A stretch of 64,000 nucleotides of DNA from Acetofilamentum sp. (GCA_020721805.1 DYMB01000006.1:24688-88687); one strand, 5' to 3'; shown: positions 2,136-56,847, numbered from the stretch's first letter. Numbers and translations are program-made. The notes: a model not told the origin generated them from the sequence alone.

Positions 2136-2145
2136 ATTTCCTCCA

Positions 2146-2823: not shown

Positions 2824-2832
2824 AATTCCCCC

Positions 2833-6649: not shown

Positions 6650-6658
6650 AAAAACTCC

Positions 6659-7297: not shown

Positions 7298-7309
7298 TAC
7301 TCCTCCTGA

Positions 7310-8602: not shown

Positions 8603-8614
8603 CTATCCTCCAGT

Positions 8615-10763: not shown

Positions 10764-10771
10764 ATCAACTC

Positions 10772-11980: not shown

Positions 11981-11991
11981 TTTACTCCCTT

Positions 11992-13116
11992 TTATTCTTC
12001 TATCAACTCAACATTGGCTCTTGGAAGAATAATCTTTTTACCATCTTCAAATTCAAATTCAAGGACTCTAACATGTGCTTCGGTCTCTATCTTTTGAAGT
12101 TGTGATGGTAAACCAACAACTCTTCCTATGGAACCAAAATATGGTTGTCTTATTATTCTAACAAGTGAGTTGATATCCATACCGAGTTGATCATGTTTCG
12201 CTTCTTCAAACTTTATATTAAGATCATCATAGGTTACTATAACTTCGGGTCTCATAACTCCAGCCCTTATCTGGGTAGCACCATTTATCGATGCTCTTTT
12301 ACCATCATTTTTTGAAAGTATCTCAAAAGTTTTTTTTGCCATCGTCATCTTTCCAAAACCCTCTGTGATTATGAGTGTTATACCCTTCTCTTCATGTCCT
12401 GTTATTGCAACACCGATCTCCTCACCAAGAAAATCCTTTAAATCTTTATCATCTATACCACCAACAACAATACCTATAACCTGTTTTTTAACGCATTCTT
12501 CCAAAATTTCACTTGTAATCAGAGAACCGCCTATAACTATTTTCCCTTTCAGGTCATCCGTTATATCCTCTTTTGTTAAAACATAGTCTGGAGATTTTGC
12601 AACAAGTTTCAATTCACCTTTAGCCTCACCTCCTATACCGAATATACCCTGTATGAAAGTCGCAGGTGTTTGCACAACTATTCCTTCATTAGCGATCACT
12701 TCAACAACTTTACCATTTACATATGCATCTATTTCAACCTTTTTGGGAGGTTTTCTAAGAGTAAGCATACCTGTTATATCTGAATAATTTTCAACAGTTC
12801 CATCTATGGGTGAAATGACCGTTGTTTTAAACAATCCAAAAAATCCTTTCGATTCTGCTATGATCTGATCCTTTTTGATAGGATCACCGATTGAAACTTT
12901 TAAAAATGAGAGTGCCTCTTTTGGTGGGACACCCAGTTTTCCAGCAAGATTAAGTCTTTCAACATCTCCTGGCAGTAGAGTCCTTGCAACTATATCATCG
13001 GCTTTTACAAAATCTCCCATCTTAACAAGAACCTCACCTTTTAAAGGCAATCTTCTCTCTTTTTTTAAGATCGCTTTTTCAGTCACTTTCAAACCTGGCG
13101 TATATGAATGAGCCAT
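11992..13116 (-). CDS. Conserved hypothetical protein with barrel-sandwich hybrid motifs, swivel/PA-like core and KOW-like C-terminus
   Basis: VLVKMGDFVKADDIVA and LKVSIGDPIKKDQIIA...SPIDGTV (hybrid motifs); GKIVIGG...IGIVVGG; VRIIRQPYFGSIGRV. Confidence 0.7.
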   Translation of the reverse strand: MAHSYTPGLKVTEKAILKKERRLPLKGEVLVKMGDFVKADDIVARTLLPGDVERLNLAGKLGVPPKEALSFLKVSIGDPIKKDQIIAESKGFFGLFKTTVISPIDGTVENYSDITGMLTLRKPPKKVEIDAYVNGKVVEVIANEGIVVQTPATFIQGIFGIGGEAKGELKLVAKSPDYVLTKEDITDDLKGKIVIGGSLITSEILEECVKKQVIGIVVGGIDDKDLKDFLGEEIGVAITGHEEKGITLIITEGFGKMTMAKKTFEILSKNDGKRASINGATQIRAGVMRPEVIVTYDDLNIKFEEAKHDQLGMDINSLVRIIRQPYFGSIGRVVGLPSQLQKIETEAHVRVLEFEFEDGKKIILPRANVELIEE

Positions 13117-13126
13117 AATTCCTCCA

Positions 13127-14920
13127 TTATTTTTCAGGATATACTTTCAGTTCCTTCATCCACTTTGATAATTTTTCAACTCTATCCTTATCGTTTTCAG
13201 GTAGTATGAAGGGTCTTCTTCCTCTGGTATCAACAATAACTCCAACAACACCACCTTCAAGTTCAGTTTCTATCTCCTTTCCTCGTCCGATCCCCATATC
13301 AAGTCCTTTTGCTGGTGTTATTACCGCCTTAACTTTTTGATTCAAACCAAGAGGAATTATATTCATTTCTCCAAAATTGAACCTGTATTCATTCCCATCA
13401 AATTTTATTCTAACAGCTTCCTGTCCCTCTTTTATATTCCCTATAGGTGCAACACATGAACCAAGTCTTATCAAACAATCTTTTTCAAAAACCTCTGTAG
13501 CAGCCTTTTCATGAACTGTTGACAGAACACCGAGTTGAGGCATCATAAATATTGAATCCACTGTAAGCATTGTTACACCTTCAGGTAAGAATGCATCTAT
13601 CATCATAATCGCTGATTGAACCCTTCTGGGTGCATGAGAAAGAACCCCACCTGAACCAACAACGAGATTTAAAGTTAACATATTTACAAGAGTTTCACCG
13701 GTGCTCGTTTGATCGAAAGCGTCTGAAATCGTCCTCTCCTTTTGAACACCTTTTAAACCGACAGCCATAGTCTTATGTTGTTCGAGAGCAAGTCTTAGAG
13801 CCTCTCTTGATATCGCCTGTTCTATCTGAAGCTCATCCACGGTTGAAGGTATGGTTGTTGGTCTTATCATTTTATTTCTAATTCTGTTTCTTAAATCTTT
13901 TTCATCCATATGAAATGGAACCCATCTCATTATATTTTTCAATCCGGCTTCCTTTACAACATTTGAAATGGAATAACTCATTCCTAAATTTGCTGAAACT
14001 GTTCTGTTGAAAGTATTTTGAAAATATGAGAACACATCGGTTGTAGCTCCTCCTATATCAACACCAAGAACTTCTATTTTGTCCCTCTTTCCTATCGTTT
14101 CTATCAAAAGTCCAACGGCACCGGGAGTGGGCATTATCGGAACATCAGTCATATCCATCAATTTTCTGTATCCTGGAGCCTGCGCCATAACATGTTCCAT
14201 AAAAAGATCGTGTATTTTATCTCTCGCAGGTTTCAAATTCTCTTTTTCAAGAGTTGGTCTTAAATTTTCAACAACATAAAGAGCGGTCTTTTTTTCAAGT
14301 CTTTCCGTTATCTCGTTGACGGCTTTATTATTTCCAGCATAGATGACTGGCAATTTGTATCCCACACCGAATCTTGGTTTTGGATCGGCAGCCTGTATTA
14401 TCTCTGCAAGTTGAACGACATGAGTTATTGTTCCACCATCGGTCCCGCCTGAAAGAAGTATCATATCGGGTCTTAAAGTCCTTATTCTTTTTATCCTTTC
14501 ATGGTCAAGTCTTTTATCATTTGTGGCTATAACATCCATAACAATTGAACCTGCACCCAAAGCCGCCCTTGCGGCTGATTCGGCTGACATTTTATCAACT
14601 ACACCGGCAACCATCATCTGTAAACCACCTCCAGCAGACGATGTTGATATGTAAAGATCCACTCCATCTCCTTCGGGGTTTATTCTTTTTATTATTTTAT
14701 CATTATCAAGAATCTTTATATTGGCAAGTTCTTCAACCTCTCTTATAGCGTTCAAAACACCTTTTGTCACATCCTCGTATGGAGCCTCAACGGTTGTAGG
14801 TGCTTCCCCTCTTACGATCAAACGATATTCATTTTCCCTTTTCTCTATAAGTATAGCCTTTGTTGTTGTGGAACCACAATCGGTTGCAAGAATCCTTGTA
14901 ATTTGATCCTTCCGTTTCAT
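13127..14920 (-). CDS. Glutamate mutase L (GlmL/MutL-type) ASKHA-family ATPase, long form
   Basis: ATDCGSTTTKA (phosphate 1), SSAGGGLQM, LSGGTDGG, IMPTPGAV, VDIGGATTDVFS (phosphate 2), RTVSANLGM, GSGGVL. Confidence 0.85.
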   Translation of the reverse strand: MKRKDQITRILATDCGSTTTKAILIEKRENEYRLIVRGEAPTTVEAPYEDVTKGVLNAIREVEELANIKILDNDKIIKRINPEGDGVDLYISTSSAGGGLQMMVAGVVDKMSAESAARAALGAGSIVMDVIATNDKRLDHERIKRIRTLRPDMILLSGGTDGGTITHVVQLAEIIQAADPKPRFGVGYKLPVIYAGNNKAVNEITERLEKKTALYVVENLRPTLEKENLKPARDKIHDLFMEHVMAQAPGYRKLMDMTDVPIMPTPGAVGLLIETIGKRDKIEVLGVDIGGATTDVFSYFQNTFNRTVSANLGMSYSISNVVKEAGLKNIMRWVPFHMDEKDLRNRIRNKMIRPTTIPSTVDELQIEQAISREALRLALEQHKTMAVGLKGVQKERTISDAFDQTSTGETLVNMLTLNLVVGSGGVLSHAPRRVQSAIMMIDAFLPEGVTMLTVDSIFMMPQLGVLSTVHEKAATEVFEKDCLIRLGSCVAPIGNIKEGQEAVRIKFDGNEYRFNFGEMNIIPLGLNQKVKAVITPAKGLDMGIGRGKEIETELEGGVVGVIVDTRGRRPFILPENDKDRVEKLSKWMKELKVYPEK

Positions 14921-15258
14921 TCATCCTCCTTAAGATTCTTCTTTTTACTCTTTTTAGCATTTTCAAAATCTTCAATAAATGAAATCAATTTTTCAACAGA
15001 TTCTCTCTCTTCAAAAATAAGTGATGCCTCCCTGTATTCTTTTATATTGAAAAAAGTGAGAACGATCGGTTCAAGGAAAATCATAATCTGAGAACTTATA
15101 AAATTCATAGGTTTTATAGTTTCAAGAAACATTACCGCTGGAGCTGTTAATCCTCTGTTAACTATATTTTCTGCGATTTTCTTTAATATCCCTTCTTTCC
15201 TTTCACCTGATATCTCTTTTGCAGCAACAGGTTTAAAATCGTTATTTTGATTGTCCAT
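14917..15258 (-). CDS. Small conserved hypothetical protein
   Basis: 113 aa, translationally coupled between gcvPB and the glmL-like gene; KIAENIVNRGLTAPAVMFLETIKPMNFISSQ motif. Confidence 0.7.
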   Translation of the reverse strand: MDNQNNDFKPVAAKEISGERKEGILKKIAENIVNRGLTAPAVMFLETIKPMNFISSQIMIFLEPIVLTFFNIKEYREASLIFEERESVEKLISFIEDFENAKKSKKKNLKEDE

Positions 15259-26389: not shown

Positions 26390-27469
26390 TTATTTTCCTT
26401 TTTTCTTTAAATCCTCATATTTTTTATACGCTTCGACAGATTTCTCATTCATCTTCATCCTTGAATAACTATCAGCAAGAATAAGATAGAGATCACTTAT
26501 TTCAACACCGGCTTTTTTTATATAATCTTCAAGCGTTTTAACCGCATCAGCGTAATCTTTATTCTTGTAATAAGCGAAACCAAGGTTAAGAAGAGATTCC
26601 AGATCTTCGCTGTTATCGGTTATTGCTAATAAAAAATATTTTATAGCATTTTTATATTCCTTTTTTTCTTCAAGATAAATTTTACCCAGTTTATAATCCA
26701 CATCGTTCTTATAGGTTATAAGTTTTGTTTTCATTAAAGAATCGGAATTTTCAAAAATCTGATCGAATTTTACAAAATTATCGATAGCATTATTAAAATC
26801 TTTTCCAGCAAAAGCAACTTCTCCCAACCAGTATAGTATCTGTGGATTTTCAAAATCTATCTCTTTTGCCTGGTCTAAATATTTTTTAGCCTCCTGAAGG
26901 TTATTACTTTCGATATAATATTTTGCAACATTAAAAAGTAATGATAGATTTTTGGGATTCTTCGATAGGGATTTATCCATAATCTTTTTCATATTGATCT
27001 CATCCTGATTTTCAAGATAAAGTAAAACAAGATAATCATAATTAACTGTGGTATCTTTAATCTCTTCTGCCTTTAAAAGGTAATTCTCATACTTTGTCCT
27101 GTTTTCTTTTCCATCTTTGTTTCTTAAAAATCCGGTACCCGCGTTGAAAAGTACTGGCCAGTAAAATTCTACATTCTCTTTCATTTCTTTCAAAACCTGT
27201 TTTGTTGTATCCTTTTCAACTGCAATCAAAAAATTCTCAGCTGCCAGATCAAACTCACTCTTTGATCCATAGGCTTTACCAAGCCATAGGTAAGCCTGAG
27301 GATTATTAGGCTCTATTTTTATCGCCTCTTTGAACTGGACAATCGCTTTATCAAAATCACTCTGTTGCATATATATTATACCCGAGGACATATATTGATT
27401 ATTACATCCTGTCAAAAGTATAATAAAAAAAATAACAGAAAAAGATATTTTAAATAACAATTTTAACAT
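26390..27469 (-). CDS. TPR-repeat lipoprotein
   Basis: Start moved to ATG 27469 (GGAGGT RBS); lipobox LTGC; multiple TPR repeats. Confidence 0.82.
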   Translation of the reverse strand: MLKLLFKISFSVIFFIILLTGCNNQYMSSGIIYMQQSDFDKAIVQFKEAIKIEPNNPQAYLWLGKAYGSKSEFDLAAENFLIAVEKDTTKQVLKEMKENVEFYWPVLFNAGTGFLRNKDGKENRTKYENYLLKAEEIKDTTVNYDYLVLLYLENQDEINMKKIMDKSLSKNPKNLSLLFNVAKYYIESNNLQEAKKYLDQAKEIDFENPQILYWLGEVAFAGKDFNNAIDNFVKFDQIFENSDSLMKTKLITYKNDVDYKLGKIYLEEKKEYKNAIKYFLLAITDNSEDLESLLNLGFAYYKNKDYADAVKTLEDYIKKAGVEISDLYLILADSYSRMKMNEKSVEAYKKYEDLKKKGK

Positions 27470-27503
27470 TAGTACCTCCAGATAAAGATAAAATTGGTTT
27501 ATT

Positions 27504-27531
27504 ATTTTATCAAAAAATATTTTTTTGTCAA
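27504..27531 (-). promoter_or_regulatory. Sigma70-type promoter upstream of the TPR lipoprotein/rplM operon
   Basis: Minus strand TTGACA-16 nt-TAAAAT. Confidence 0.6.
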
Positions 27532-27595
27532 TATATGTGATTCTTCTCATAATTCAGAATGAATACTATAAGAAAAAAATAGAGTTATTATTTTA

Positions 27596-28066
27596 TTATT
27601 TATTAAATATATCGTTCAAAATGTTCTCGATTTCGTTTTTAAACTGAGCATCAAAGGTTATATTCTCTTCTTCTTCCTTCATAAGTGATAAAATATTCTG
27701 ACATACTTTTTGGGACATAACCTGTATAACTCCAATGATCGCATTTTTTGTAAAGATGGAGATAAGAATTAAATCGTCAGTGATAGCATAATAAAAAAAA
27801 GAATATTTTTTACCTTCCTGAAAGAGAGTTAAAAAATAATCCTCTTTTAATAGTTTTGCTATACTTCTTGTAGCGTTGAATATTCCAGAACAGAGTGCTC
27901 CGATAGATTGGTTAAAATAATCATCATTTTTTTGACCATTTTGAAAAAGAATCTGTCCTGAGGTGTTTATGACCAAAACACTCGTTACTCTTGTCTCGAT
28001 TGTAAATGCCCTCAATAACCGTTCAACATTTTTAACGGTAATTTCATCAAGAACAAGTTTTTTCAT
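27596..28066 (-). CDS. Roadblock/LC7 domain protein, MglB-like
   Basis: VLVINTSGQIL...IGALCSGIFNATRSIAKLLKEDYFLTLFQEG resembles the MglB core; acidic C-terminal helix. Confidence 0.8.
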   Translation of the reverse strand: MKKLVLDEITVKNVERLLRAFTIETRVTSVLVINTSGQILFQNGQKNDDYFNQSIGALCSGIFNATRSIAKLLKEDYFLTLFQEGKKYSFFYYAITDDLILISIFTKNAIIGVIQVMSQKVCQNILSLMKEEEENITFDAQFKNEIENILNDIFNK

Positions 28067-28076
28067 ATAATTTAAA

Positions 28077-28421
28077 TTAAATTAATTCCTGTAATGATGT
28101 TGCAATATTTTTAATCTGGATTATAAGAGATCCTATGTTAACATTCTTTTCAGCAAGTGTAAAAAGAATAAACTTTTCTTTTGAAATGAATAAAATTTCT
28201 CCCTTATCGGTATATATGGTTGAAAATATTGGAAGAGGATCCGTGCTCTTTCCAAGACTCTTTTCCATCTCAATATTTATCTTTGCGACCATCGCACCCA
28301 GAAGTTCAGCCAGATCAGTTTCGTAGAACAACTTTTCAACTATCAGTCCATCCTTTGTTAAAACCGCGACACCTTTTACCCCTCCTATTTCCATCACTTT
28401 TTCGATCTTTTCTTTTATCAT
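28077..28421 (-). CDS. Roadblock/LC7 domain protein
   Basis: IGGVKGVAVLTKDGLIVE...ELLGAM...NVNIGSL, canonical Roadblock pattern. Confidence 0.85.
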   Translation of the reverse strand: MIKEKIEKVMEIGGVKGVAVLTKDGLIVEKLFYETDLAELLGAMVAKINIEMEKSLGKSTDPLPIFSTIYTDKGEILFISKEKFILFTLAEKNVNIGSLIIQIKNIATSLQELI

Positions 28422-29149
28422 TGTTCAAGCACCTGTTTTATATTTTTTAAAAGTTGTTTTGCCTTTATCAGTATCAATCCAATTTTTACAATCTCTTCTG
28501 TAAATATTCCAAGTATGTATCCATTACCTTTAAAAAGATATATTCTCACCTTGCCAATTTCTATAAATATTCTATCTATGGGTCCAAGATCTGTTTTCCC
28601 TATAGAATCTTCACAGACCAGAAAAATTGTAGAGAATAAGGCTGAGGTTATTTCAGGATCAAGATTCTCAATCATCTTCGATTTGACAACAAGTCCAGAT
28701 TCTTCAATTATGATACTTCCCAAAACACCGTTTACTTTATTGATCTCACCAAGTGATCTATCGAGTAAACTTTCAGTTTCATTTGCTGTTATAATATTTT
28801 CTTTTTCGATTTTTTCCATCACCTCAAGATTTACAGATGAAATGGTTTCTTCCTTTTTTTCTGGTTTATTTTCTTCCAATTTCTTCACAGGCTCAACGAA
28901 AGACTTTATCTGTTGATCATCTGGATATTCATTTAATAGTTCGTTCAGAACATTCAAAGCTGTTGGATCGTTTAACCCCTTTAAAGATTTGTAAAGAAGA
29001 ATTTTTGCATCCTTTATATCTGGAAATTCAGAAAGAATCATTTTGCAGTATGTTATCGCTTCATTGTATGCTTTATTCTTGTAAAGATCCTCAGCGATCA
29101 TTATAAAAACGGAAAGACTCTCCCTATCAACTTTCATCCCCTCATTCAA
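28418..29149 (-). CDS. TPR + Roadblock/LC7 fusion protein
   Basis: N-terminal TPR pair; C-terminal VNGVLGSIIIEESGLVV...VKIGLI Roadblock domain. Confidence 0.82.
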   Translation of the reverse strand: MNEGMKVDRESLSVFIMIAEDLYKNKAYNEAITYCKMILSEFPDIKDAKILLYKSLKGLNDPTALNVLNELLNEYPDDQQIKSFVEPVKKLEENKPEKKEETISSVNLEVMEKIEKENIITANETESLLDRSLGEINKVNGVLGSIIIEESGLVVKSKMIENLDPEITSALFSTIFLVCEDSIGKTDLGPIDRIFIEIGKVRIYLFKGNGYILGIFTEEIVKIGLILIKAKQLLKNIKQVLEQ

Positions 29150-30251
29150 ATTTACCTCCTAAAAATTCTTCAAAAAGTTTTTGACTTTCCTTCAAATGAT
29201 CTATGAGTTTTTCAATCTTACTCTGCTTTTCTGGAGTTTTAAGAAGATCGTAAAGAGATATCAACTCTTCTATACTCTTTTCTAACATTCCTCTTTTGAA
29301 ATAAGCAAAAGAGTTATACTTTTTTATAAAAGGATCATCCATCTGTTCTTTTTTTACAAGTGAAGCGTAATCGTTAACCTTTTCAAACTGGCCTGTAGCA
29401 AAAAAAGAGTATATTATCATTCTATAAGCATCGATATTTTTTGGATCAATTTTTAAATAGTTTTTTAGTTCTAAAATCGATTTGTCGTAAAGTCCATCAT
29501 CAAAATAATGCTTTGCAACATCAAAAGAATTTTTATCGGATTCAATATGCGATGTTTCAACAACAACGATTCCAAGGGTTATCATTCCATAAATCAATTT
29601 TGCGATTTCAAATTCATCCCCATACCTTTCAGCAATATCTTTAATACTGTTTTTTCCATTTATCATAGAAAAAATTTCCCATTCTTTGGGTTTCAAATCC
29701 AGAAGATCCATCTTATCAGGATTATCAGAGATTTTTGGCACCACAGATGAATTGGGAATCTTGGAAGATAATCTTGACCATTCGTCTATCCTTCTGGAAC
29801 CTTCCATTATCAGGGATTCAGTTTTTATTCTAAACTTTATTAAATTATCAAGTAATATACTGGTTTCCTCAAATTTGAAATAACCATCTTTCCATTCGAA
29901 AAGTTTAAAAATAGTATCTTCGATTCTTAACTGCAAGAATTTTCTTAACTCGTTTTCACTCATAATTTTCATCTTTACTACCTCTCTTGCAAACTCCAGA
30001 TCATCGTTAGGTATCCTGTTTAAGATTTTCTCTTCATAAAATTCCTTTGTTATTTTTCCCGCTTTGATCAAAAGCAAAGGTAGATTGATTCCCTCAACAT
30101 TAGCATAGACAACGTTTCCCTTTTCAAAAAAAACATTTGCTTTTTGATCATTAACAGATTTAATCCTCAGAATACCACTCTTCTGGTTGAAAGAGAGTAT
30201 TTGAAAGAGATCTATCAGGTTGAGTTCGCTTATCGGTCCTTCTATAGCCAA
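29142..30251 (-). CDS. DUF4388 domain protein with C-terminal TPRs
   Basis: MAIEGPISELNLIDLFQILSFNQKSGIL, LFEWKDGYFKF, LIMEGSRRIDEW. Confidence 0.85.
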   Translation of the reverse strand: MAIEGPISELNLIDLFQILSFNQKSGILRIKSVNDQKANVFFEKGNVVYANVEGINLPLLLIKAGKITKEFYEEKILNRIPNDDLEFAREVVKMKIMSENELRKFLQLRIEDTIFKLFEWKDGYFKFEETSILLDNLIKFRIKTESLIMEGSRRIDEWSRLSSKIPNSSVVPKISDNPDKMDLLDLKPKEWEIFSMINGKNSIKDIAERYGDEFEIAKLIYGMITLGIVVVETSHIESDKNSFDVAKHYFDDGLYDKSILELKNYLKIDPKNIDAYRMIIYSFFATGQFEKVNDYASLVKKEQMDDPFIKKYNSFAYFKRGMLEKSIEELISLYDLLKTPEKQSKIEKLIDHLKESQKLFEEFLGGKFE

Positions 30252-30259
30252 TTTGACTC

Positions 30260-32968
30260 CTATTCAAATATCGATATCCAATTTCTTGCTGCCTCTATCG
30301 CTTTCTGACTTTTGATAGCGAATTCAGAACCGGGAGCATTTTTTGTGACACTGTTCCATCTTTCAATCGCTTCCTTTATATAACCTTCTTTGGCTATAAG
30401 TTTAGCATAATTAAAATTCGCTTCAGCATTATTGTTATCGAGTTTTAGAATATTTTGATACGCATCCTTTGCCACTTCAAAATTATCGATTTCCTGACAT
30501 ATAGCCCCTATCTTTAAAAACGCTTTTATGTTTGCAGGATCTATCTGAACTATTCTTGTGTAAATTTGAATCGTTTTGTCAAAATCTTCATCAAGTTCAT
30601 ATAACATACCAAGTTCCCAGAGATAATCTAAGTTATTATAATCTTTGCTGACAAGAGATTCCAGTATCTTTATCGATTCATCATAAATTTTCATTTTTCT
30701 TAAAAGATTTGCCTTTTTAAACAGGATTTCAAAATTCTCAGGGAAGATCTTCAGTATACGGTCATAGATTTCAAGAACATCTTTATCCCTGTTCTGAGAA
30801 AAATATATTTCTGCAAGATTTGAAAGAGCATCAACATTTTCTGGTTCCTTTATAAGGATATCTCCAATTATTTTGATCGCATCATCAAGTTTATTGTTCT
30901 TCCATAAAAGCATGGCATAGAGGTTCATAATTTCAGTTGGAGAATTATCTTTTTGAATTATTTTGGATAAATATTCAAGAGGTTCATTGTAAACACCTTT
31001 ACCGTATAATAATTTTGAAAGTTTGAAGACCGCACTTCTATTTAAAGGTGAAATGTTAACGATCTTTTTATAATACTCTTCAGCCTCACCATAAATATTT
31101 TTAATATTGTAAACATCCGCGATCAATTCAAGCATTTCAATATCATTTTCATCTTTTCTCACCACTTCCAGTGCTAACTGTAAAGCTGCGTCGTATTCAC
31201 TTTTATCAAAAGATTCCTTCGCTTTTTTTCTCTTATCATCAATTACATCTATCTCTTTTAATTTATCATCCTCTTTTTCAAAAGTATCCTCAGTTTCCTC
31301 TTCAAAAACAGCTGTAAAAATATCTGCACTTTTTTGTTCATCCATCAAAAATCCTTCAAGCTGCTCAGAAGATGTTACCTGATAATCCTTGGACAATGTT
31401 CCACTTATAAGGACATCAACCTTATCGGCATAGTAATCGAGTCCAAGTTTATATCTCGTTTCAACATAATATGGATTCAACTTTAAAGCCTCTTTGGTAT
31501 ACTTTAAAGCCTCTTCGTACTTTCCAATTTTAGATAATGTAAATGCAAGATTATAATATGCTTCAGCAAATTTTTCATCATATTGAATCGCTTTTTCGAA
31601 AACTTTTATGGCATCCTCATATTTACCATTTTCTCTATAAATTATTCCGAGATAGTTATAGGTGAGAGGATAATCTCCCTTTACCTCCAGAACCCTATCT
31701 ATAAATTTTTTTGCCTGTTCAAAATTTTTTCTCTCGATGTTTAAAATCGAAAGGTTGATAAGAGCATCAACATAGTCATCTCTGATCTCGAGAGATTTTA
31801 AAAACAACTTTTCACCTTCATCATTCTTGTTGAGATGCACCATCGCTATACCGATATTGTTGTATGCCATAACATACATCGGATCAATTTTGATGGACTG
31901 ATTGTAACATTCAACAGCCTTACTCAATTCTCCTTTTCTGTGAAAGGCTATACCCATATCGTTATAAGCCTTTGCGGCAAACGATTCATCTTTTAACGCG
32001 AGTTTGTATTCATCTATCGCTTTATCATTTTCTCCAAGAAGAAGATATATCTCTCCAATCTGTATATGAATTATGGATCTTTCAGGTTCAACTGATTCGG
32101 CTTTTCTGAATTCCTTTAAAGCTTCGTTGAATAATCCTTTATTTCTGAAACCTATACCCAGAGTAAAATAGGTCAAAAAACTGTTTGGCTGGAACGAAAC
32201 ATTAGACTCCTCGTTGAGAAAAGATTGATACGCTCCCTGTTGGTAAAATTCTATCCCGAGATTAGCCTGCGTTTTTCCATATGCTGGATTGAGTTTTATA
32301 GCCTTTTTCGTCTCTTTTATCGCATCATCGAAAAGCCCTTTTTCACCATAAACAAAACCTAAAAGAAAATGCGCTTCGGCAAGGTTTACATCAAGTTCAA
32401 GTGCCTTCTGGAACTCTTTTATCGCTGAATCAAGTATTCCCTTATTGTAATAAACTTCTCCAAGCATTGAATGTATCTGAGCAGATTCGGGTTGAAACTT
32501 TAAAGATTTTCTGTATTCCTCTATAGAATCATCATACATCCCTAAAGATTTATATATTTTGGCAAGATTCAATCTTGCATCGATAAAGGATGGATTCCCC
32601 TTTAAAATCTTTTTGTATTCAGCGATAGCATCAAGTGATTTACCCATATTGTTCAAAGCTTCCGCTAATTTGAATCTTGTATTCAAATCTTCTTGATCGT
32701 TTTCTAAAATATTTCTATATTCATATATTTTTTTGTCATACATTCCGGTTTCACGGTATATAAGTTCAAGGTTGTTTTTTGCAAGAGTAAATCTTGGATC
32801 TATTGATAAAGCCTTTTCTAACTCTTCTATGGCTTCATCGTAGAGTCCTTTATTGTAGTAAACAACGGCAAGATTGTTATGTGCTCCAGCATCTTTAGGA
32901 TCTATTCTCTGTGCCAGTGATTTTAAAACCTTTTTCTCCGCTTCAGAAATCTGGATCTGTTTTTTCAT
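30260..32968 (-). CDS. Large cytoplasmic TPR-repeat protein
   Basis: 902 aa of TPR repeats in two blocks separated by an acidic linker; no signal peptide. Confidence 0.88.
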   Translation of the reverse strand: MKKQIQISEAEKKVLKSLAQRIDPKDAGAHNNLAVVYYNKGLYDEAIEELEKALSIDPRFTLAKNNLELIYRETGMYDKKIYEYRNILENDQEDLNTRFKLAEALNNMGKSLDAIAEYKKILKGNPSFIDARLNLAKIYKSLGMYDDSIEEYRKSLKFQPESAQIHSMLGEVYYNKGILDSAIKEFQKALELDVNLAEAHFLLGFVYGEKGLFDDAIKETKKAIKLNPAYGKTQANLGIEFYQQGAYQSFLNEESNVSFQPNSFLTYFTLGIGFRNKGLFNEALKEFRKAESVEPERSIIHIQIGEIYLLLGENDKAIDEYKLALKDESFAAKAYNDMGIAFHRKGELSKAVECYNQSIKIDPMYVMAYNNIGIAMVHLNKNDEGEKLFLKSLEIRDDYVDALINLSILNIERKNFEQAKKFIDRVLEVKGDYPLTYNYLGIIYRENGKYEDAIKVFEKAIQYDEKFAEAYYNLAFTLSKIGKYEEALKYTKEALKLNPYYVETRYKLGLDYYADKVDVLISGTLSKDYQVTSSEQLEGFLMDEQKSADIFTAVFEEETEDTFEKEDDKLKEIDVIDDKRKKAKESFDKSEYDAALQLALEVVRKDENDIEMLELIADVYNIKNIYGEAEEYYKKIVNISPLNRSAVFKLSKLLYGKGVYNEPLEYLSKIIQKDNSPTEIMNLYAMLLWKNNKLDDAIKIIGDILIKEPENVDALSNLAEIYFSQNRDKDVLEIYDRILKIFPENFEILFKKANLLRKMKIYDESIKILESLVSKDYNNLDYLWELGMLYELDEDFDKTIQIYTRIVQIDPANIKAFLKIGAICQEIDNFEVAKDAYQNILKLDNNNAEANFNYAKLIAKEGYIKEAIERWNSVTKNAPGSEFAIKSQKAIEAARNWISIFE

Positions 32969-32973
32969 TTATC

Positions 32974-33591
32974 CTACCTGTTTAAAAAATCAAGAAGTTT
33001 TTTTAAAGATATCGGATCGGGTAAAAGTATAAGGTATCCTTTTAAAGGTTGTGGTTCATCTTCAAAGGTAAACTCTGTTTCAACACAGAAAACTATATCT
33101 TTGTTTGCGCTAAAATCTATATAGGCAGAAGTTACAACAGCGGAACCTATATCTATGACAAGGTTTGGAACAGAAGGTAGAATAAGCATGTTGAGAAAAT
33201 CACTCATCGCTGTAAGGTATGAACCTACAACTATATTGGCAACCTCCTTTATTGCGGATTGCTCTATTTCACTCAATACCGTAGTGGTTCCAACAGGTTT
33301 CCCCATAACCATATCGACAAGAAGCATGGATTCATCTCTTGGAAAAAGAAGTAATGTCCTTCCAGTAAGATCTCCAAGAAATTTCACAAGTACACCGGTT
33401 ACGATTTCATCCTGATTGTCGATTATTCTATAAATTTCCTCAGAGGAAATTAAATGAACTTTTGGAACAGATACCATAACTCTTTTGTTAACCAACTGGG
33501 AGAGAACTGTCGCTGCATGACCACCACCAATGTTTGATATTTCTTTGATACCATCGAGGTGAAAATCTTTCAGGTTCTTATAATCTATCAT
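32974..33591 (-). CDS. cheC: CheY-P phosphatase CheC
   Basis: Two ExxN motifs (KEISNIGGGHAATVLS; KEVANIVVGSYL), PSVP. Confidence 0.92.
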   Translation of the reverse strand: MIDYKNLKDFHLDGIKEISNIGGGHAATVLSQLVNKRVMVSVPKVHLISSEEIYRIIDNQDEIVTGVLVKFLGDLTGRTLLLFPRDESMLLVDMVMGKPVGTTTVLSEIEQSAIKEVANIVVGSYLTAMSDFLNMLILPSVPNLVIDIGSAVVTSAYIDFSANKDIVFCVETEFTFEDEPQPLKGYLILLPDPISLKKLLDFLNR

Positions 33592-33594
33592 AAA

Positions 33595-35457
33595 TTACCC
33601 CACTTTTGAAATCGTTACGATCCCTGGAACATCCACAATAAAAGAAGGCATCCCATTATTTAAAATTGTTACACCTGCCAGCCCAGGTATTCCAGCAAGC
33701 ATTCCCTTTAAAGGTTTTACAACGACTTCCGATTGTTCAACAAAATTTTCTACCAGTATTCCATACAGGGATTCATCAACTTCAACCAGAACTATTTGAA
33801 AATTCTCTTTTTCTCTATTATATTCGCTTTTGAAAATATCCGCAAGTCGTATCAATGGGACTATACCTTCTCTGAGAATAAATACTTCTTTCCCCATTAT
33901 TGTATAAATTTCATCCATATTTATTCTAATGGTTTCAACTATATGTGTCAAAGGTATTATGTATACCTCCGAGCCTACATTTACAAGCAAAGCTTTTATT
34001 ATCGCGAGTGTTAAAGGAACTTTTAAAATAAATGTGGTTCCTCTACCCGTCTGCGAAGAGATCTCAAGTGTCCCACCTATATGTTTTAAAACATTATAGA
34101 CCGCATCAACACCAACACCCCTTCCTGATATATCTGTGACCTCCTCCTTGGTTGAAAATCCACTATTTAAGATAAGGGAGAATACCTCATGATCACTCAT
34201 CCTTGTAGATTCATCCTCGGAAATCAAATTTAAAGATATCGCTTTTGAAATGATCTTGTTTTTGTCCAATCCCTTTCCATCATCTGAAACAATAATTAAA
34301 ACTCCATTCTTTACCCTTTTCGTCTCAAGCAAGATATAACCTTCTGGAGATTTTTTATTTTTTATTCTTTCATCGGGTGTTTCAATACCGTGATCCACAG
34401 CATTTTTTAAAAGATGAAGTAATGGATCCGCAAGAGCGTTCAGTATGGCTCTATCAAGTTCTATATCACTTCCTTTTATTTCAAATTTTATTTTTTTGTT
34501 TAATCTGTTTGAAAGATCCCTCATAAATCTTGGATATCTATCAAAAACCTGTCCTACAGGGACCATTCTGATTTTCATTATTTCATCCTGTATAGCTGAA
34601 ATTGTTTTTGATGCCGAATTCAGAGAATTTATCAAATCTTCATTTTGAATAGAATAAGCTATCTGCTGTAATCTTCCTCTTTCTATAACAAGTTCTGCTA
34701 TATAATTTTGAAGGTTATCGAGTCTTTCAAGTGATACCTTAATATCCTTTTTTTCAATAACCACATCGTTATCACTCTTTGCCTCATCTTTAACAACAAC
34801 ATCTTTTATTTCTGGAATACTTTTTATATCATCTATTAAAGGTGCAATTTCTTTTACATTTTTGATGTTTATATTAATCTCGTTACCGAATTTTTCTTTC
34901 ATTATAGAATCGAAATCAGGTTCGGTATTTATAAAAATATTTTTATCCTGTAGACTTTTTATAACCACATAGGCTCTTGCCGATTTTAAAACCACATCAT
35001 CAGCAAAGATTACTTTTAAAGTTATATTTTTTTCATTCTCTTTTTTTTCTTCAACTTTTTCGGTTTCTATTATTTTTTTAGATGTTTCAACACCCGTTTT
35101 GATCGATTCTATAACCTTTAAAAAACTTTTTATTATGTTCTCATCGATTTCCCTTTTATTGACAAGAGAGGTTAGGTAATCGGTCCCCTTCAACAAAAGA
35201 TCTATCAAATCAACCGTTATGTTGAGTTTTGAATTCCTTATAAGATCCATAATATCTTCCATGGCATGGGAAATCTTTGTTATTGAAGAATAGCCCATAG
35301 AAGCAGCCATACCTTTAAGTGTATGCATACCTCTAAAAATTGAATTGATAGCTTCAGTATCGTTCATATCCTTCTCAAGTTTGAGAATTGAATTGGATAT
35401 CTGCTCTAAATAATCTTCCGCTTCACTTATGAACAATTCTTCATAATTTGAATTCAT
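33595..35457 (-). CDS. cheA: Chemotaxis histidine kinase CheA
   Basis: P1 FRGMHTLKGMAA, HLLKNAVDHGIE, DDGKG, GFSTKEEVTDISGRGVG, C-terminal CheW-like P5. Confidence 0.96.
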   Translation of the reverse strand: MNSNYEELFISEAEDYLEQISNSILKLEKDMNDTEAINSIFRGMHTLKGMAASMGYSSITKISHAMEDIMDLIRNSKLNITVDLIDLLLKGTDYLTSLVNKREIDENIIKSFLKVIESIKTGVETSKKIIETEKVEEKKENEKNITLKVIFADDVVLKSARAYVVIKSLQDKNIFINTEPDFDSIMKEKFGNEININIKNVKEIAPLIDDIKSIPEIKDVVVKDEAKSDNDVVIEKKDIKVSLERLDNLQNYIAELVIERGRLQQIAYSIQNEDLINSLNSASKTISAIQDEIMKIRMVPVGQVFDRYPRFMRDLSNRLNKKIKFEIKGSDIELDRAILNALADPLLHLLKNAVDHGIETPDERIKNKKSPEGYILLETKRVKNGVLIIVSDDGKGLDKNKIISKAISLNLISEDESTRMSDHEVFSLILNSGFSTKEEVTDISGRGVGVDAVYNVLKHIGGTLEISSQTGRGTTFILKVPLTLAIIKALLVNVGSEVYIIPLTHIVETIRINMDEIYTIMGKEVFILREGIVPLIRLADIFKSEYNREKENFQIVLVEVDESLYGILVENFVEQSEVVVKPLKGMLAGIPGLAGVTILNNGMPSFIVDVPGIVTISKVG

Positions 35458-35463
35458 AGTTTT

Positions 35464-35832
35464 CTATTTTAAATTCAAAACTCTATTAACGGATTCAAGC
35501 ACCCTTGAAGGTTGAAAGGGTTTCACTACAAAGTCCTTCGCACCAGCCTGTATGGCTTCAACAACCAGTGATTGTTGTCCCATCGCTGATACCATTAAAA
35601 TTTTAGCATTGGGAAACTCTTTTATGATCTCTCTTACGGCATCGATACCGGACATATCTGGCATTATGATATCCATGGTTACAAGATCGGGCTGTAACTC
35701 CCTGTACATCTGAACCGCCTGTGTACCGCTTCCAGCTTCACCACAGATCTCAAATCCTTCCTTTTTTAAAATATCAGAGATCATTCTTCTCATAAAGATC
35801 GCATCATCAACAATAAGCACCCTTGTAGCCAT
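35464..35832 (-). CDS. cheY: Chemotaxis response regulator CheY (Bacillus/Thermotoga type)
   Basis: VLIVDDAIFMR, VTMDIIMP, SAMGQQ, FVVKPFQ. Confidence 0.93.
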   Translation of the reverse strand: MATRVLIVDDAIFMRRMISDILKKEGFEICGEAGSGTQAVQMYRELQPDLVTMDIIMPDMSGIDAVREIIKEFPNAKILMVSAMGQQSLVVEAIQAGAKDFVVKPFQPSRVLESVNRVLNLK

Positions 35833-35843
35833 ATCGATTCCTC

Positions 35844-36248
35844 CTAATTTTTATTTAGAATATTTTTAACATCAATAATTATTATCTCTCTTCCATCCTT
35901 TTGAATAAAACCCTTTATATAACCTTCTTCGATTTCCTCCATGTTGACAGATTCAACATTTATAATACCTTCTATCGAGTCTACAAGAAATCCATATTTT
36001 TCTTTGTTGTTCTCACATATGATTATATAATTTTCTTCAACTTTTTTGTTGATCCTTAATTTTTCTTTCAAAGAAACCAGAACAACAACCTCTCCTCTTA
36101 AATTTATAACTCCATAAAGAAAATTCTCTGCATTTGGAATTCTCACCGCTGGTAGTTTTTCATAGATATCGATAATATCTGAAATATGTATACCATAAAA
36201 CTTCTCTTCAATTTTAAAAGTGATAAACTGTTTATTTTCGTTTTTCAT
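35844..36248 (-). CDS. cheW: Chemotaxis coupling protein CheW
   Basis: RIPNAENFLYGVINLRGEVV, GFLVDSI; start moved to ATG 36248 (MKNENKQFITF). Confidence 0.92.
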   Translation of the reverse strand: MKNENKQFITFKIEEKFYGIHISDIIDIYEKLPAVRIPNAENFLYGVINLRGEVVVLVSLKEKLRINKKVEENYIIICENNKEKYGFLVDSIEGIINVESVNMEEIEEGYIKGFIQKDGREIIIIDVKNILNKN

Positions 36249-39200
36249 CCAATTCCTTCCAGCAATATTCAATGGGCAATTTATCCAAGGGATGGAGATA
36301 AAATCCATGAACTTTATTTAAAATTGCGGATTGTTTGTAATTATGTGTCAGGAAAACCCAGGGGGCATCATCCACTATCATTTCCTCTATTTTTTGATAG
36401 ATACCGTTTCTCTCTTCATAGTTTGTGGTCATCCTTGCTTTTTCGATCAAAGAATCTATTGTTTTATTTGAATAGAAAGAATTGTTTCCACCATCTCCAA
36501 AACTATAAGTATGAAATAGAGGATAGAGGAAATTATCAGGTTCTCCAGTATCACCTGCCCAGCCCATCATAAAAATATCACATTTGCCAGAATGCATTCT
36601 TTCAAGAAGTTCCAACCATTTGAGAGGAATTATTTTAATTCTTATACCTATTTCCTTCCACATCGCTAAAAGTAATTCAGCCCTTTTTATAACAGTTTCG
36701 CTATCAGAGCAGATCATTTCAAATTGATTTTTTATACCATCAGGATAACCCGATTTTATCATAAGTTCTCTTGCTTTTGCAGGATTGTAAGGATAACCTT
36801 CAAGCAATTTATTATAACAGGGTAAAGATGGTGGAAAGATGCCTTTCGCTATTATTCCAAGTCCATACATAGTTTCATTTATATACCTTGTTTTATCCGT
36901 TGCATAGTTAATCGCCTTTCTGACATCTTTTATAAATGCCAGTTCATTTCTTCTTGACAGGTTGAATCCAACATATTGAACATCGAGTGAAGAAATGGTT
37001 AAAATATTTATATCTATCCTGTTCGATTTTTTTAAAACTTCCAGGTCCTTTACATTGATCGAAGAGTAATCTATATCCCCTGATAAAAGATTTTTAAATT
37101 CCTCCTCTTCTTTTTTTAATTTTATTATGATACTCTCAACAAAAGGTTCACCCTCAAAATAATCTTTGTTGGATTCCATCTCTATCCTATCTTCCCAGAT
37201 ACCTTTTAAAACGAATGCACCACAACCGATACAATTAGATTTCATTTTTTCATCAGAAAATTTCACCATATCCTTTTTTAATATTGATAAAGGGAGAACG
37301 GCAAGGTTTGAAAGAAACGGAATATATGGATATTCAAGAATGAATTTTATAGTATGATCATCGATGATTTTTATCCCTTCAACATCCCTTACTCTTCTTT
37401 TCATATAATCTGTGGAACCTTTGATCATATTAACGAAAGAGGCGTTTGGAGTTAACAGAACATTTTTGATAGTTTCCGAAACATCTTCTGATGTAACAGG
37501 TGTGCCATCATGAAAATATGCGTTCTCTCTCAAAAAGAATATCCATTCGGTTGCATCAGAATTTATCTGCCAGGATTTTGCCAGAGCTGGTATAACACTA
37601 GTATCCTTTCCAAATTTAACAAGACCACAATGTATATGTTGTAATATAGTATTACTCGTGGAATCCCCGACAAGAGCGGGATGCCAGTGAACCGGGAAAT
37701 TGTTCATAATGAATCTGAAAACATTTCTTTCGGTATTCCGTTTTGGAAGATATTTTTGTGAAAAAGTATCCATAATGCCGGAAACCATTTTTTCAGTATC
37801 CTCATTTTTCAACAGATCGTCTTTAAACATCTTGTTCAACTCTTCAGCTTTGATCGTTATCTGTTGGAATTTTTTTATTATATCGGTATAAATTTTTACT
37901 ATCTCATCTTTTAATTTTTCCTGATTTGAAAGTGAGTTATAAATTTCTTTTAAAAGGGTTTTGTAATTTTCAGTGGATTTCTTTGTTTCGACAACAACAG
38001 AGTTACTCATCTCGATGGAAGAGATTATATCGTTTGATGATGATAATTCCCTTTCAGCTACTTTTACAACATTTTTTAAAAGTTCGTCCATATTCTTTAC
38101 AATGTCGTTGATTTCAGAAGATGCCTCAGTTGTCCTTTTTATAAGATCTTTTGTTTGTAAAACTATCACTGAAAGATTGTTTTGAAATTTTGCATCCCTT
38201 GCAGCCTCAATAGCAGCATAAAGGGATAGAAGTTTTGTTTGTTCGGAAAGATCTTTTAATTCGGAACTCGTTTTTATTATTTCCTTAAGATTATCGGAAA
38301 TCTGAGTAAAAACAATTTTCAGGTTATTTATATATTCAAGAGTTTTTTCTATTTCATTTTTCATGTTGGTTATACTTGTTGAAAATTCGTTTACCGAACC
38401 TATCAGAAGGTTTAAATTATCTTCAATTTCACCAACATTTTTCATCATCAACTGTTCACTCTCTTCTATAGATTCGACTGCACCAAAATAATTTTTTATC
38501 ACCTCTTCCTGTTGTAAATTACTTTGAATAAAATCATCTATTACACTCATCATGGAATCAACGATGTTTTTACTGTTTTCTAAAAAATATTTTATCTTTT
38601 TAAATATTTTGATTTCTGTGAAAATAGCATGGTCTAAATCTTTTTTCTCATATATAAAATTCGAAAGGGGTTCAAGTTGGTCCATCAGATGGGAAAGAAA
38701 GATTTTAACATCGGATTGGGTTTTTAATATCGATAAAAGTTTTTCAGTATTCTGCAGGGAATGATCAATAATATACTGAATTTTTTTATTAAGATCACTG
38801 ATCGAGGCTTTATTCTTGTTCTGTATGTTGCTATACTCTTTCATCCTATCCGATTTATTAACGATATCAACAAGATTCATCTCAACATTCTTTAATCTAA
38901 AATTCAAAAGATCAACATTTTTTGTTAAACTGTCTATTTTAAAATTTATTTCATCTATCATCTCAACAACTTTTTCATTTTTCTGTTGAACACCCTTTAT
39001 GTTTTCAGGTATCATCTTTGTAAGTTTAAAAGTCTTGTTTGCCAGAAGAAGCATTCTATCAGCAATAACCTCAAATCCCTTACCATTTTCACCAGCATGG
39101 TATGCTTTGATTCCAGCATTTCTGGCGGCAGATTCTGTCATCTGGGCTATGTCGATAATTATCCCTGTTATCTGATCTATATGTTTTGAATATTCGTTTA

Positions 39201-39585
39201 AAGGCTTTACATTTTGAAGAATTTCATTCGACCCTGTAGCGAACATATTCAATTTTTCAATTATCCTATCAAACTCTTTAACACTCTTTTGAATATTTTC
39301 TGATGATTTTTTTGAATAATCTATTAAAACATCCGCGGCTTCCGAAACTATCTGGATGGAAGCGTAGAGTTGGTTACCTTTATTATCAATCTTTTGAATC
39401 TGACCGACAACATCTTTTTCATCTCTTGAAATTTCAGAAAGAACTCCTGTTGCATTATTATTTATTTCAAGAAGTTCCTCTTCTTCAATTTTGACTGTCT
39501 TTAAAGCATATATGAATGCCGTAGGATCAAATTCTTCTTCTTTCTTCGAATGGTTTTTCTTTAAAAAACTCAAAATTGATACCAT
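36232..39585 (-). CDS. Soluble chemoreceptor: two MCP signalling domains fused to a C-terminal family-5 (DppA/OppA-like) solute-binding domain
   Basis: Hairpin tips AQMTESAARNAGIKAYHAGENGKGFEVIADRM and SEQTKLLSLYAAIEAARD; SBP5 motifs PALAKSWQI..DATEWIFFLRENAYFHDGTPVTSEDV, VRKAINYATD, YPYNPAKARELM; no TM or signal peptide. Confidence 0.85.
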   Translation of the reverse strand: MVSILSFLKKNHSKKEEEFDPTAFIYALKTVKIEEEELLEINNNATGVLSEISRDEKDVVGQIQKIDNKGNQLYASIQIVSEAADVLIDYSKKSSENIQKSVKEFDRIIEKLNMFATGSNEILQNVKPLNEYSKHIDQITGIIIDIAQMTESAARNAGIKAYHAGENGKGFEVIADRMLLLANKTFKLTKMIPENIKGVQQKNEKVVEMIDEINFKIDSLTKNVDLLNFRLKNVEMNLVDIVNKSDRMKEYSNIQNKNKASISDLNKKIQYIIDHSLQNTEKLLSILKTQSDVKIFLSHLMDQLEPLSNFIYEKKDLDHAIFTEIKIFKKIKYFLENSKNIVDSMMSVIDDFIQSNLQQEEVIKNYFGAVESIEESEQLMMKNVGEIEDNLNLLIGSVNEFSTSITNMKNEIEKTLEYINNLKIVFTQISDNLKEIIKTSSELKDLSEQTKLLSLYAAIEAARDAKFQNNLSVIVLQTKDLIKRTTEASSEINDIVKNMDELLKNVVKVAERELSSSNDIISSIEMSNSVVVETKKSTENYKTLLKEIYNSLSNQEKLKDEIVKIYTDIIKKFQQITIKAEELNKMFKDDLLKNEDTEKMVSGIMDTFSQKYLPKRNTERNVFRFIMNNFPVHWHPALVGDSTSNTILQHIHCGLVKFGKDTSVIPALAKSWQINSDATEWIFFLRENAYFHDGTPVTSEDVSETIKNVLLTPNASFVNMIKGSTDYMKRRVRDVEGIKIIDDHTIKFILEYPYIPFLSNLAVLPLSILKKDMVKFSDEKMKSNCIGCGAFVLKGIWEDRIEMESNKDYFEGEPFVESIIIKLKKEEEEFKNLLSGDIDYSSINVKDLEVLKKSNRIDINILTISSLDVQYVGFNLSRRNELAFIKDVRKAINYATDKTRYINETMYGLGIIAKGIFPPSLPCYNKLLEGYPYNPAKARELMIKSGYPDGIKNQFEMICSDSETVIKRAELLLAMWKEIGIRIKIIPLKWLELLERMHSGKCDIFMMGWAGDTGEPDNFLYPLFHTYSFGDGGNNSFYSNKTIDSLIEKARMTTNYEERNGIYQKIEEMIVDDAPWVFLTHNYKQSAILNKVHGFYLHPLDKLPIEYCWKELDEKRK

Positions 39586-39661
39586 TTTTATCCCTTTAAA
39601 TAAAAAAAATATAACATATTATTAAAAATAAATCAATACAAAATAAAGATTGGGAATATCA

Positions 39662-56846: not shown

Positions 56847-56847
56847 T

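Follow-up and report, generated by a model that had tools for sequence, protein, structure and literature searches.

A che operon continuing into TPR, PATAN and Roadblock genes in Acetofilamentum sp.: candidate chemosensory input to an MglA-type polarity switch

The 64,000-nucleotide (nt) stretch of the Acetofilamentum sp. genome analyzed here (GCA_020721805.1; contig C3, 24688-88687; hereafter the window) carries a chemosensory (che) operon that runs into genes for a large TPR protein, a PATAN (DUF4388) protein and three Roadblock proteins. What does a chemotaxis kinase control in such company? A prediction made from the sequence of the window (the original prediction) had proposed a non-flagellar output linked to cell polarity. 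The assembly that includes contig C3 (G000; 1.70 Mb in 74 contigs) is 99.8% complete and gave no match to FliM or FliG_C, which bears out the non-flagellar part of that proposal. The best explanation of the data is a chemosensory system split over two loci, with the operon as its kinase half, that controls a Ras-like polarity switch rather than a flagellar motor.

Two loci in one genome

Open reading frame (ORF) calling placed ten tightly packed genes on the minus strand, running from 39585 to 27596. The first encodes a soluble chemoreceptor (mcp, 36232..39585; 1117 amino acids [aa]; Pfam MCPsignal 96 bits, SBP_bac_5 261 bits). It is followed by genes for CheW (35844..36308; 154 aa as listed; Pfam CheW 96 bits), a single-receiver-domain CheY (35464..35832; 122 aa; Response_reg 108 bits), CheA (33595..35457; 620 aa), whose Hpt, P2, H-kinase_dim, HATPase_c and CheW domains all score above the Pfam cut-offs, and a predicted CheC-type phosphatase of phosphorylated CheY (CheY-P) (32974..33591; 205 aa; Pfam CheC 76 bits). 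Translation of CheW probably starts at an internal ATG at 36248, giving 134 aa (orthologues have 132-146 aa). The run continues with the large TPR protein (30260..32968; 902 aa; matched by many TPR families), a PATAN/DUF4388 protein with C-terminal TPR repeats (29142..30251; 369 aa; DUF4388 96.9 bits, TPR match weak), a fusion of N-terminal TPR repeats to a C-terminal Roadblock domain (28418..29149; 243 aa; Robl_LC7 30.3 bits), a short generic Roadblock/LC7 protein (28077..28421; 114 aa; Robl_LC7 32.1 bits) and an MglB-family Roadblock protein, MglB2 (27596..28066; 156 aa; Robl_LC7 29.7 bits).

All genes named in the original prediction were found on the minus strand, in the order given and with Pfam support. 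From cheW to the last Roadblock gene the spacing varies from an 8-nt overlap to an 11-nt gap, in agreement with the gaps of about 11 nt or less described before, and these overlapping or nearly touching reading frames point to one transcript. The mcp gene had also been counted in; it is present upstream of cheW but lies outside the span first claimed for the operon (27596-36248). A hydropathy scan detected no signal peptide or membrane segment in any of the ten products. The Pfam scan covered 66 of the 79 window ORFs of at least 100 aa, the other 13 being overlapping frames on the opposite strand. Genes for CheR, CheB, CheD, flagella or pili were not among the 66, and to that extent the earlier statement that the window lacks them holds.

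Contig C18 carries a second locus with the string pilM-pilN-pilO-x-pilQ-plsY, TPR, efp, pilT, mglA2, ATPase, PATAN/TPR, cheR, cheD, cheB, TPR and CheW-like; the last two genes encode 283 and 243 aa. The mglA2 product (C18:60694-61299) matches Myxococcus xanthus MglA at E 3e-67 and has the TVPGQ and NKRD motifs. The adjacent genes encode a DnaA/Hda-like AAA+ ATPase (C18:61296-62954; 552 aa) and the second-locus PATAN/TPR protein (C18:62944-64557; 537 aa). An insertion in the PATAN domain of the latter matches the MshE-related motif NF053729 for binding of cyclic di-GMP (c-di-GMP) (48.4 bits; cut-off 38), which suggests a c-di-GMP input to the system through this protein.

In the whole genome we counted two CheR (154.8 and 149.4 bits), one CheB (182.5 bits) and one CheD (103 bits), on contigs C18 and C44. 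Only one CheA is encoded: of four CheW-domain matches, one falls within a CheA-sized frame (622 aa). The cheR, cheD and cheB genes of C18 can therefore only serve the kinase of the operon. The suggestion that the pathway might do without methylation-based adaptation is not supported, given the presence of these genes, which in other lineages are contiguous with the operon. The second cheR lies with a cheW gene on C44, an unplaced contig of 1804 bases; this contig may be either an assembly fragment or a piece of a third che locus.

Both genes for MglA-family GTPases lie outside the window. Besides mglA2, the genome has mglA1 (C65:72026-72613; E 5e-82 to M. xanthus MglA; TVPGQ and NKRD), downstream of a canonical mglB whose product matches M. 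xanthus MglB at E 8e-33. The mglB-mglA pair is followed, convergently, by a gene for a 560-aa chemoreceptor, the whole group lying at C65:71525-74290. Five T2SSE ATPases, three of them PilB-sized and two PilT-sized, were identified, as were three chemoreceptors and five PATAN proteins in total. The genome-wide search proposed with the original prediction has thus returned PilB- and PilT-sized ATPases, two mglA genes and cheR and cheB, and no fliM or fliG.

Gene order across families and candidate phyla

In other genomes the two loci are found as one. An alignment of the PATAN protein, scanned against one genome per species, returned 54 loci. In ten of them, labeled Edwardsbacteria or UBP2 or left unlabeled, the string runs from the third Roadblock gene into a gene for an MglA-family GTPase. 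Nine of the ten continue with DnaA-like ATPase-PATAN/TPR-CheR-CheD-CheB, and in L090 the GTPase gene leads to cheR without the ATPase. The Pfam-checked example, L094, reads Robl180-MglA197-AAA462-PATAN/TPR535-CheR-CheD-CheB. In L088, from WOR-3 family f5, the third Roadblock gene is followed directly by ATPase-PATAN/TPR-CheR-CheD-CheB. The joined string of the Edwardsbacteria- and UBP2-labeled loci is CheW-CheY-CheA-CheC-TPR-PATAN-three Roadblocks-MglA-ATPase-PATAN/TPR-CheR-CheD-CheB. Judged by gene order, this is the C18 locus fused to the C3 operon, and the two loci form one module.

The joined and rearranged clusters also point to a partner for the last Roadblock protein of the operon. In L094 and its kin, L088, L145, L146 and L154, the MglB-type Roadblock gene adjoins that for MglA or the ATPase. 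This gene closes the kinase operon in some genomes and stands next to mglA2 and the ATPase gene in others, which we take as the strongest sign that the MglB-type protein is the partner of MglA2. Ten second-locus regions from other WOR-3 families gave a similar picture: ATPase-PATAN/TPR-CheR-CheD-CheB is present in nine, with MglA directly before the ATPase in four, MglA-MglB-like-ATPase in two and MglB-like-ATPase in one. The pilT gene lies no more than three genes from the mglA2/ATPase block in five of the ten and directly adjoins mglA2 in two, as it does in the genome studied here. The DnaA-like ATPase varies from 384 to 891 aa in relatives and is always encoded between the MglA2 or MglB-like gene and the PATAN/TPR gene.

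CheY, CheA, CheC, the large TPR protein and PATAN are encoded on one strand in 41 of the 54 PATAN loci, 39 of which also have a Roadblock match; the remaining 13 are short or cut on the side where the absent genes would be expected. Beyond WOR-3, TA06 and Stahlbacteria, the loci are labeled Edwardsbacteria (3), UBP2 (4), Latescibacterota (1) and Bacteroidales (on a 3.3-kb contig). Five genomes from outside the phylum that carry the module, of unknown completeness, gave no FliM match, and each has 4 to 15 T2SSE matches.

Within the phylum we surveyed 272 genomes, including G000. The TPR-Roadblock query found a match in 128 (E 1e-3; other Roadblock proteins are included in this count), MglA was present in 167 (E 1e-10), CheA of any type in 114 (E 1e-30) and the DnaA-like ATPase in 80 (E 1e-15), the last mostly in families carrying this operon type. 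FliM exceeded the Pfam cut-off in five of the 272, none from a family with this operon type. A weak FliM match in G021 was rejected as a flagellar gene, as it falls inside the cheC of that genome. Twenty regions were fetched at the best TPR-Roadblock matches. All ten genes, in the same order and of similar sizes, are present in 11; three regions are cut by contig ends, three are unrelated Roadblock contexts, and single regions lack MCP and CheW, lack PATAN and the third Roadblock, or have no kinase. Among 16 regions fetched at CheA matches from other families, seven are of this type; in the other nine a different, longer CheA is encoded alongside CheB and CheR, and Roadblock genes are missing. 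In families f10-f11 PATAN is present together with two small, barely recognizable proteins. The operon flanks vary among families, and recR and rplM are found only in the closest one.

This recurrence, across many WOR-3 families and in Edwardsbacteria- and UBP2-labeled genomes, argues that the operon is an old, inherited module, and the proposal of independent, local assembly is not supported. The link to a polarity module is strengthened, since the Roadblock genes stay with the che genes across families and candidate phyla and MglA joins the same string in other phyla. Rather than a full set of flagellar genes with FliM and a Roadblock linkage confined to one genome, we found FliM and FliG absent and the linkage conserved. 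The original prediction was right in its main line and needed correction on adaptation and on local assembly.

Receptor, Che core and the proteins downstream of CheY

The receptor has an unusual architecture. Two MCPsignal matches lie within the one mcp reading frame, corresponding to tandem signaling hairpins at approximately residues 21-302 and 317-612. The C-terminal part is a DppA/Opp-like SBP_bac_5 domain. No transmembrane segment or signal peptide was found (hydropathy maximum 1.28). The first hairpin has a canonical tip (approximately residues 146-185) and the second a tip with a degenerate turn (approximately 448-485); both tips, like the architecture as a whole, are kept in 14 orthologues. 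An AlphaFold2 (AF2) model of residues 1-620 (pLDDT 83) has helices at 21-302, 317-463 and 468-612, and each hairpin aligns over about 300 columns with the Thermotoga maritima MCP 2ch7. The helices and the alignment fit two tandem hairpins in one chain, and the modeled receptor may be a single-chain pseudo-dimer. A limited literature search for fusions of SBP_bac_5 to chemoreceptors found only separate solute-binding proteins acting on receptors.

The Che core is complete for signaling: an MCP signaling domain, CheW, a five-domain CheA and a single-domain CheY with its phosphorylation residues are all present. In alignment, CheY keeps D9, D10, D54, S82 and K104. Its identity is 69-91% in every kinase-bearing WOR-3 operon of the 20 fetched regions and 61-74% in loci labeled as other phyla. 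For CheA, identity across the compared operons is 31-74%, dropping to 31-38%, with 31-33% in loci labeled as other candidate phyla. The CheA genes of WOR-3 family f6 (G022-G027) have one in-frame TAG in all six matches; recoding, a defect shared by all six or a split gene might explain it. The best NCBIfam models were CheA_Halo (457 bits; cut-off 950), CheY_Halo (120; 200) and CheC_Thtogales (178; 250). The CheY/CheC pair had been described as Bacillus/Thermotoga-type; a Thermotoga/archaeal flavor fits these models best, but all scores fall below the family cut-offs.

One genome without a CheA match, G019, has a CheY-like gene in which D54 is replaced by G and D10 by E, placed directly before TPR-PATAN-TPR/Roadblock-Roadblock. 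Its product is a pseudo-receiver kept with the TPR, PATAN and Roadblock partners. Elsewhere G019 has ATPase-PATAN/TPR-TPR without CheR, CheD or CheB (loci L061 and L153). The gene content marks the G019 loci as a kinase-free remnant of the module.

An orthologue of the 902-aa TPR protein directly follows cheC in all loci of this operon type. The protein has no hydrophobic segment and is a candidate adaptor between CheY and the GTPase. The PATAN domain of its neighbor is well supported (Pfam PF14332, 96.9 bits against a cut-off of 25, residues 4-159). In the AF2 model of this PATAN-TPR protein (pLDDT 85.9), helices spanning 57-118 are inserted between strands of the PATAN domain, and residues 236-369 match three-TPR peptide-binding domains (Z 14-16.6); the C-terminal TPR domain filled the Foldseek and VIA-align lists. 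The protein is not of the PatA type, as it carries TPR repeats and no receiver. Complex prediction with CheY gave a score of 0.00 (mark 0.32), which counts neither for nor against binding.

The fusion of TPR repeats to a Roadblock domain recurs in orthologues from other families and phyla. Its Roadblock domain is 27% identical to the 114-aa protein (E 2e-5) and, like it, resembles generic LC7-type proteins. A profile of the latter matched short generic Roadblock/LC7 entries of the PDB at E 2e-13, MglB at 4e-4 and MglC (7ct3) at 8e-3. The 156-aa protein is different in kind. Its profile, built from 13 orthologues, matched M. xanthus MglB at E 5.4e-28 over positions 3-155 of 156 and Thermus MglB at E 8e-18. 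The original description of the last Roadblock protein as MglB-like is upheld: it is of the MglB family over its full length, C-terminal extension included. It is 30% identical to the canonical MglB of the genome, and since it scored 45.6 bits with the NCBIfam MglB model against an equivalog cut-off of 200, it is a paralogue and not the canonical protein. It is a candidate GTPase-activating protein (GAP) for MglA.

In the window the operon lies between recR, on its upstream side, and rplM. A consensus scan of the 76 nt that separate recR from mcp found a weak promoter-like site (TTGATT-17-TATATT with TG; 39608..39636, minus strand); such sites number 79 in the region against 65 +/- 9 in shuffled sequence, which is not clearly above expectation. 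The downstream neighbor, a gene for a 386-aa TPR protein at 26390-27550, was rejected as a member of the module. Its product has a hydrophobic N-terminus, it has its own strong promoter-like site at 27531-27504, and its synteny is confined to family f1. Approximately 15 kb upstream of the operon (54237-60795), a diguanylate cyclase (GGDEF) gene is grouped with genes for a receiver-HD_5 protein and a PAS/GAF histidine kinase of 1315 aa. A minus-strand run of about 14 genes with almost no family matches (1399-15258) includes genes for two DUF6754 proteins, a GlmL/MutL-like actin-fold ATPase (13127-14920) and a further PATAN protein (3578-4471). ExbB/ExbD-like genes are found at 243-1319.

Proposed circuit, its rivals and known systems

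We regard it as probable that a chemosensory input resembling that of Frz acts on an MglA/MglB-type switch, which in turn directs type IV pili, and that CheY is read out by the TPR, PATAN and Roadblock proteins. The soluble MCP would sense a cytoplasmic ligand, peptide-like judging by SBP_bac_5, and set the activity of CheA. The receptor would be adapted by CheR, CheD and CheB, and CheY-P reset by CheC. CheY-P would be read by the TPR protein, the PATAN proteins or both, and through them a Roadblock complex, composed of an MglB2 dimer and short Roadblock units, would be altered in activity or relocated. This complex may be the GAP or another regulator of MglA2, and perhaps also of MglA1. MglA-GTP, acting through TPR and PATAN proteins, would direct PilB and PilT to one pole, and chemosensory input could in this way bias the direction or reversal of twitching motility. 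The scheme suggests that this uncultured bacterium, which has no flagella, uses a gene-encoded version of a circuit known in pieces only from Myxococcus to steer its pilus-driven movement on surfaces.

Published findings lend plausibility to such a mechanism. PixE binds PilB1 and PilC through its PATAN domain (10.1101/2021.06.11.447907). SgmX, with 14 TPRs, interacts with MglA and with the FrzS pseudo-receiver and recruits PilB to the pole; PATAN proteins co-occur with it (PMC11580455). Genes for MglB homologues often have PATAN genes nearby (PMC4316618). PATAN and receiver domains form one polypeptide in cyanobacteria and are encoded by neighboring genes here, which is a fusion-type hint of contact between the two.

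Several observations weigh against this scheme. All of its steps downstream of CheY are derived from gene order and homology, and the operon of this genome encodes no GTPase. The higher frequency of MglA (167 of 272 genomes) than of CheA of any type (114) indicates that the polarity switch works without the operon. The 902-aa TPR protein scored 48.6 bits with the SgmX model NF052243 against a cut-off of 1800; it is not an SgmX orthologue, and its likeness to SgmX, as far as sequence goes, is at the level of TPR repeats only. Neither the short Roadblock protein nor the Roadblock domain of the TPR fusion appears specifically MglC-like from the profile matches, and for the short one this is a further difficulty. 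In families f25-f27 the operon reads CheY-CheA-CheC-TPR-TPR/Roadblock-Roadblock and lacks PATAN. Between pilT and the mglA2/ATPase block lie accC and thiE (Pfam) in L149 and same-sized unlabeled ORFs in L150 and L152; with unrelated genes intervening in three of five loci, the proximity of pilT may be residual synteny. The target could also be something other than pili, which we consider improbable.

The functions open to an MglA-type GTPase other than pilus control include type IX-dependent gliding or secretion, cell division and a c-di-GMP-dependent surface switch. The c-di-GMP motif of the second-locus PATAN/TPR protein (48.4 bits; cut-off 38), the GGDEF and REC-HD_5 genes of the window, and a DnaA-like partner ATPase with no known role in pilus control would fit such a function. 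Such an output is nevertheless unlikely: pilT adjoins mglA2 in this genome and in two of ten relatives and lies no more than three genes from the block in three more, and the activities published for PATAN domains and for the MglA effector SgmX all concern PilB. Another possibility is that the TPR, PATAN and Roadblock proteins act upstream of the kinase and, under the polarity switch, position or scaffold the soluble receptor-kinase array at a pole or another landmark, the target of CheY-P being encoded elsewhere. An array whose receptor has no membrane anchor needs a positioning device, TPR and Roadblock proteins commonly serve as scaffolds, and the complex prediction for CheY and PATAN (score 0.00) named no read-out partner. 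However, G019 keeps its pseudo-receiver before TPR-PATAN-TPR/Roadblock-Roadblock without CheA, so the receiver domain, and not the array, is tied to these partners. The identity of 69-91% for CheY against 31-74% for CheA is likewise as expected if CheY has several fixed partners, and we judge the scaffolding role to be quite unlikely.

The adjacency of the che genes to those for the TPR, PATAN and Roadblock proteins might also reflect nothing more than a gene order frozen in small genomes, with no shared function. The operon does sit amid housekeeping genes (recR upstream, rplM downstream). Yet the order of its ten genes is constant while the flanks change among families, it recurs in loci labeled as other candidate phyla in which CheA identity is just 31-33%, and the overlapping or nearly touching frames point to one transcript. 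Coincidental adjacency is highly improbable and close to refuted.

A more far-reaching version of the pilus-directing circuit can be put forward as possible rather than probable. In this joint reading, the operon and the second locus would constitute a compact, self-contained chemosensory-GTPase machine of approximately 18-20 genes. A TPR/PATAN/Roadblock complex would read CheY-P directly and serve as a signal-regulated GAP or guanine nucleotide exchange factor (GEF) of a dedicated MglA paralogue, with the c-di-GMP-sensing PATAN protein and the DnaA-derived ATPase as co-regulators. The single-chain pseudo-dimer receptor would sense a cytoplasmic ligand through an internalized solute-binding domain. 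Such a machine would represent a previously undescribed class of chemosensory output and a one-string blueprint of the connection from Frz to MglA.

Knowledge of the path from a chemosensory signal to a Ras-like polarity switch has come piece by piece from a single organism, Myxococcus, whose genes for it are scattered. In the module described here a candidate wiring is written in one gene string, or in two in the present genome, and each link has a candidate that can be purified: CheY, the large TPR protein, PATAN-TPR, two short Roadblock units, the MglB paralogue, the MglA paralogue and the DnaA-like ATPase. A full-text literature search, which most subscription journals lay beyond, found no description of Roadblock and PATAN genes linked to a che operon. 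The data suggest that many uncultured bacteria of WOR-3 and the Edwardsbacteria type are chemotactic without flagella, and that a Thermotoga/archaeal-flavored Che core can couple to a GTPase output. Orphan MglB homologues, uncharacterized according to PMC4316618, gain a testable context.

Among known systems, the kinase of actinobacterial conservons is a membrane sensor kinase, not CheA. To our knowledge, conservons have no MCP, CheW, CheY, PATAN or TPR parts. They do resemble the present module in that an operon joins a histidine kinase, a Roadblock protein and an MglA-family GTPase (PMC4316618). The Pil-Chp system of Pseudomonas aeruginosa is alike in the chemosensory polarization of type IV pili, through response regulators acting on the localization of PilB and PilT. 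In ChpA, Hpt domains are numerous and a receiver lies at the C-terminus. The CheA described here has one Hpt and no receiver, and the system is not of the Pil-Chp (Tfp) class; we know of no MglA, Roadblock or PATAN parts in Pil-Chp.

The F1-like systems of Thermotoga, Bacillus and archaea share with this one the P2 domain of CheA, CheC, CheD, CheR and CheB. They drive flagella or archaella, whereas this genome is without FliM and FliG, and the NCBIfam scores of its CheA, CheY and CheC are all below the family cut-offs. MiST class F1 has class-specific CheA, CheW, CheR and CheB profiles, CheC and CheD, and long 44-heptad receptors. A paper on F1 systems (PMC13747009) does not mention CheC or CheD. 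The cyanobacterial Tax/Pix systems with PatA-type (PATAN-REC) regulators are alike in their chemotaxis-like kinase, PATAN output and control of type IV pilus polarity. In contrast to Tax/Pix, PATAN is here fused to TPR and not to a receiver, CheY is encoded on its own, the module includes Roadblock and MglA proteins, and the receptor is a soluble fusion to a solute-binding domain, not a photoreceptor.

There is a close likeness to the M. xanthus system of Frz, MglA/MglB (with MglC and RomR) and SgmX. Both have a cytoplasmic receptor, a Che-type kinase, CheR and CheB; in both an MglA-family GTPase is paired with a Roadblock protein of the MglB family, and further Roadblock proteins are present; and in both a large TPR protein and a receiver domain stand at the interface, with type IV pili the likely target. 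FrzE is a fusion of CheA to a receiver, and FrzZ is a double-receiver output protein. By comparison, the CheA described here has no receiver (no Response_reg match), and the only receiver of the operon is the single-domain CheY. CheC and CheD are present, PATAN proteins and the DnaA-like ATPase are integral, and the TPR protein fails the SgmX model. The Myxococcus parts are scattered, with mglA not near its partners (PMC4316618), whereas here they are operonic. The operon probably works like Frz on an MglA/MglB pair but is no member of the Frz family.

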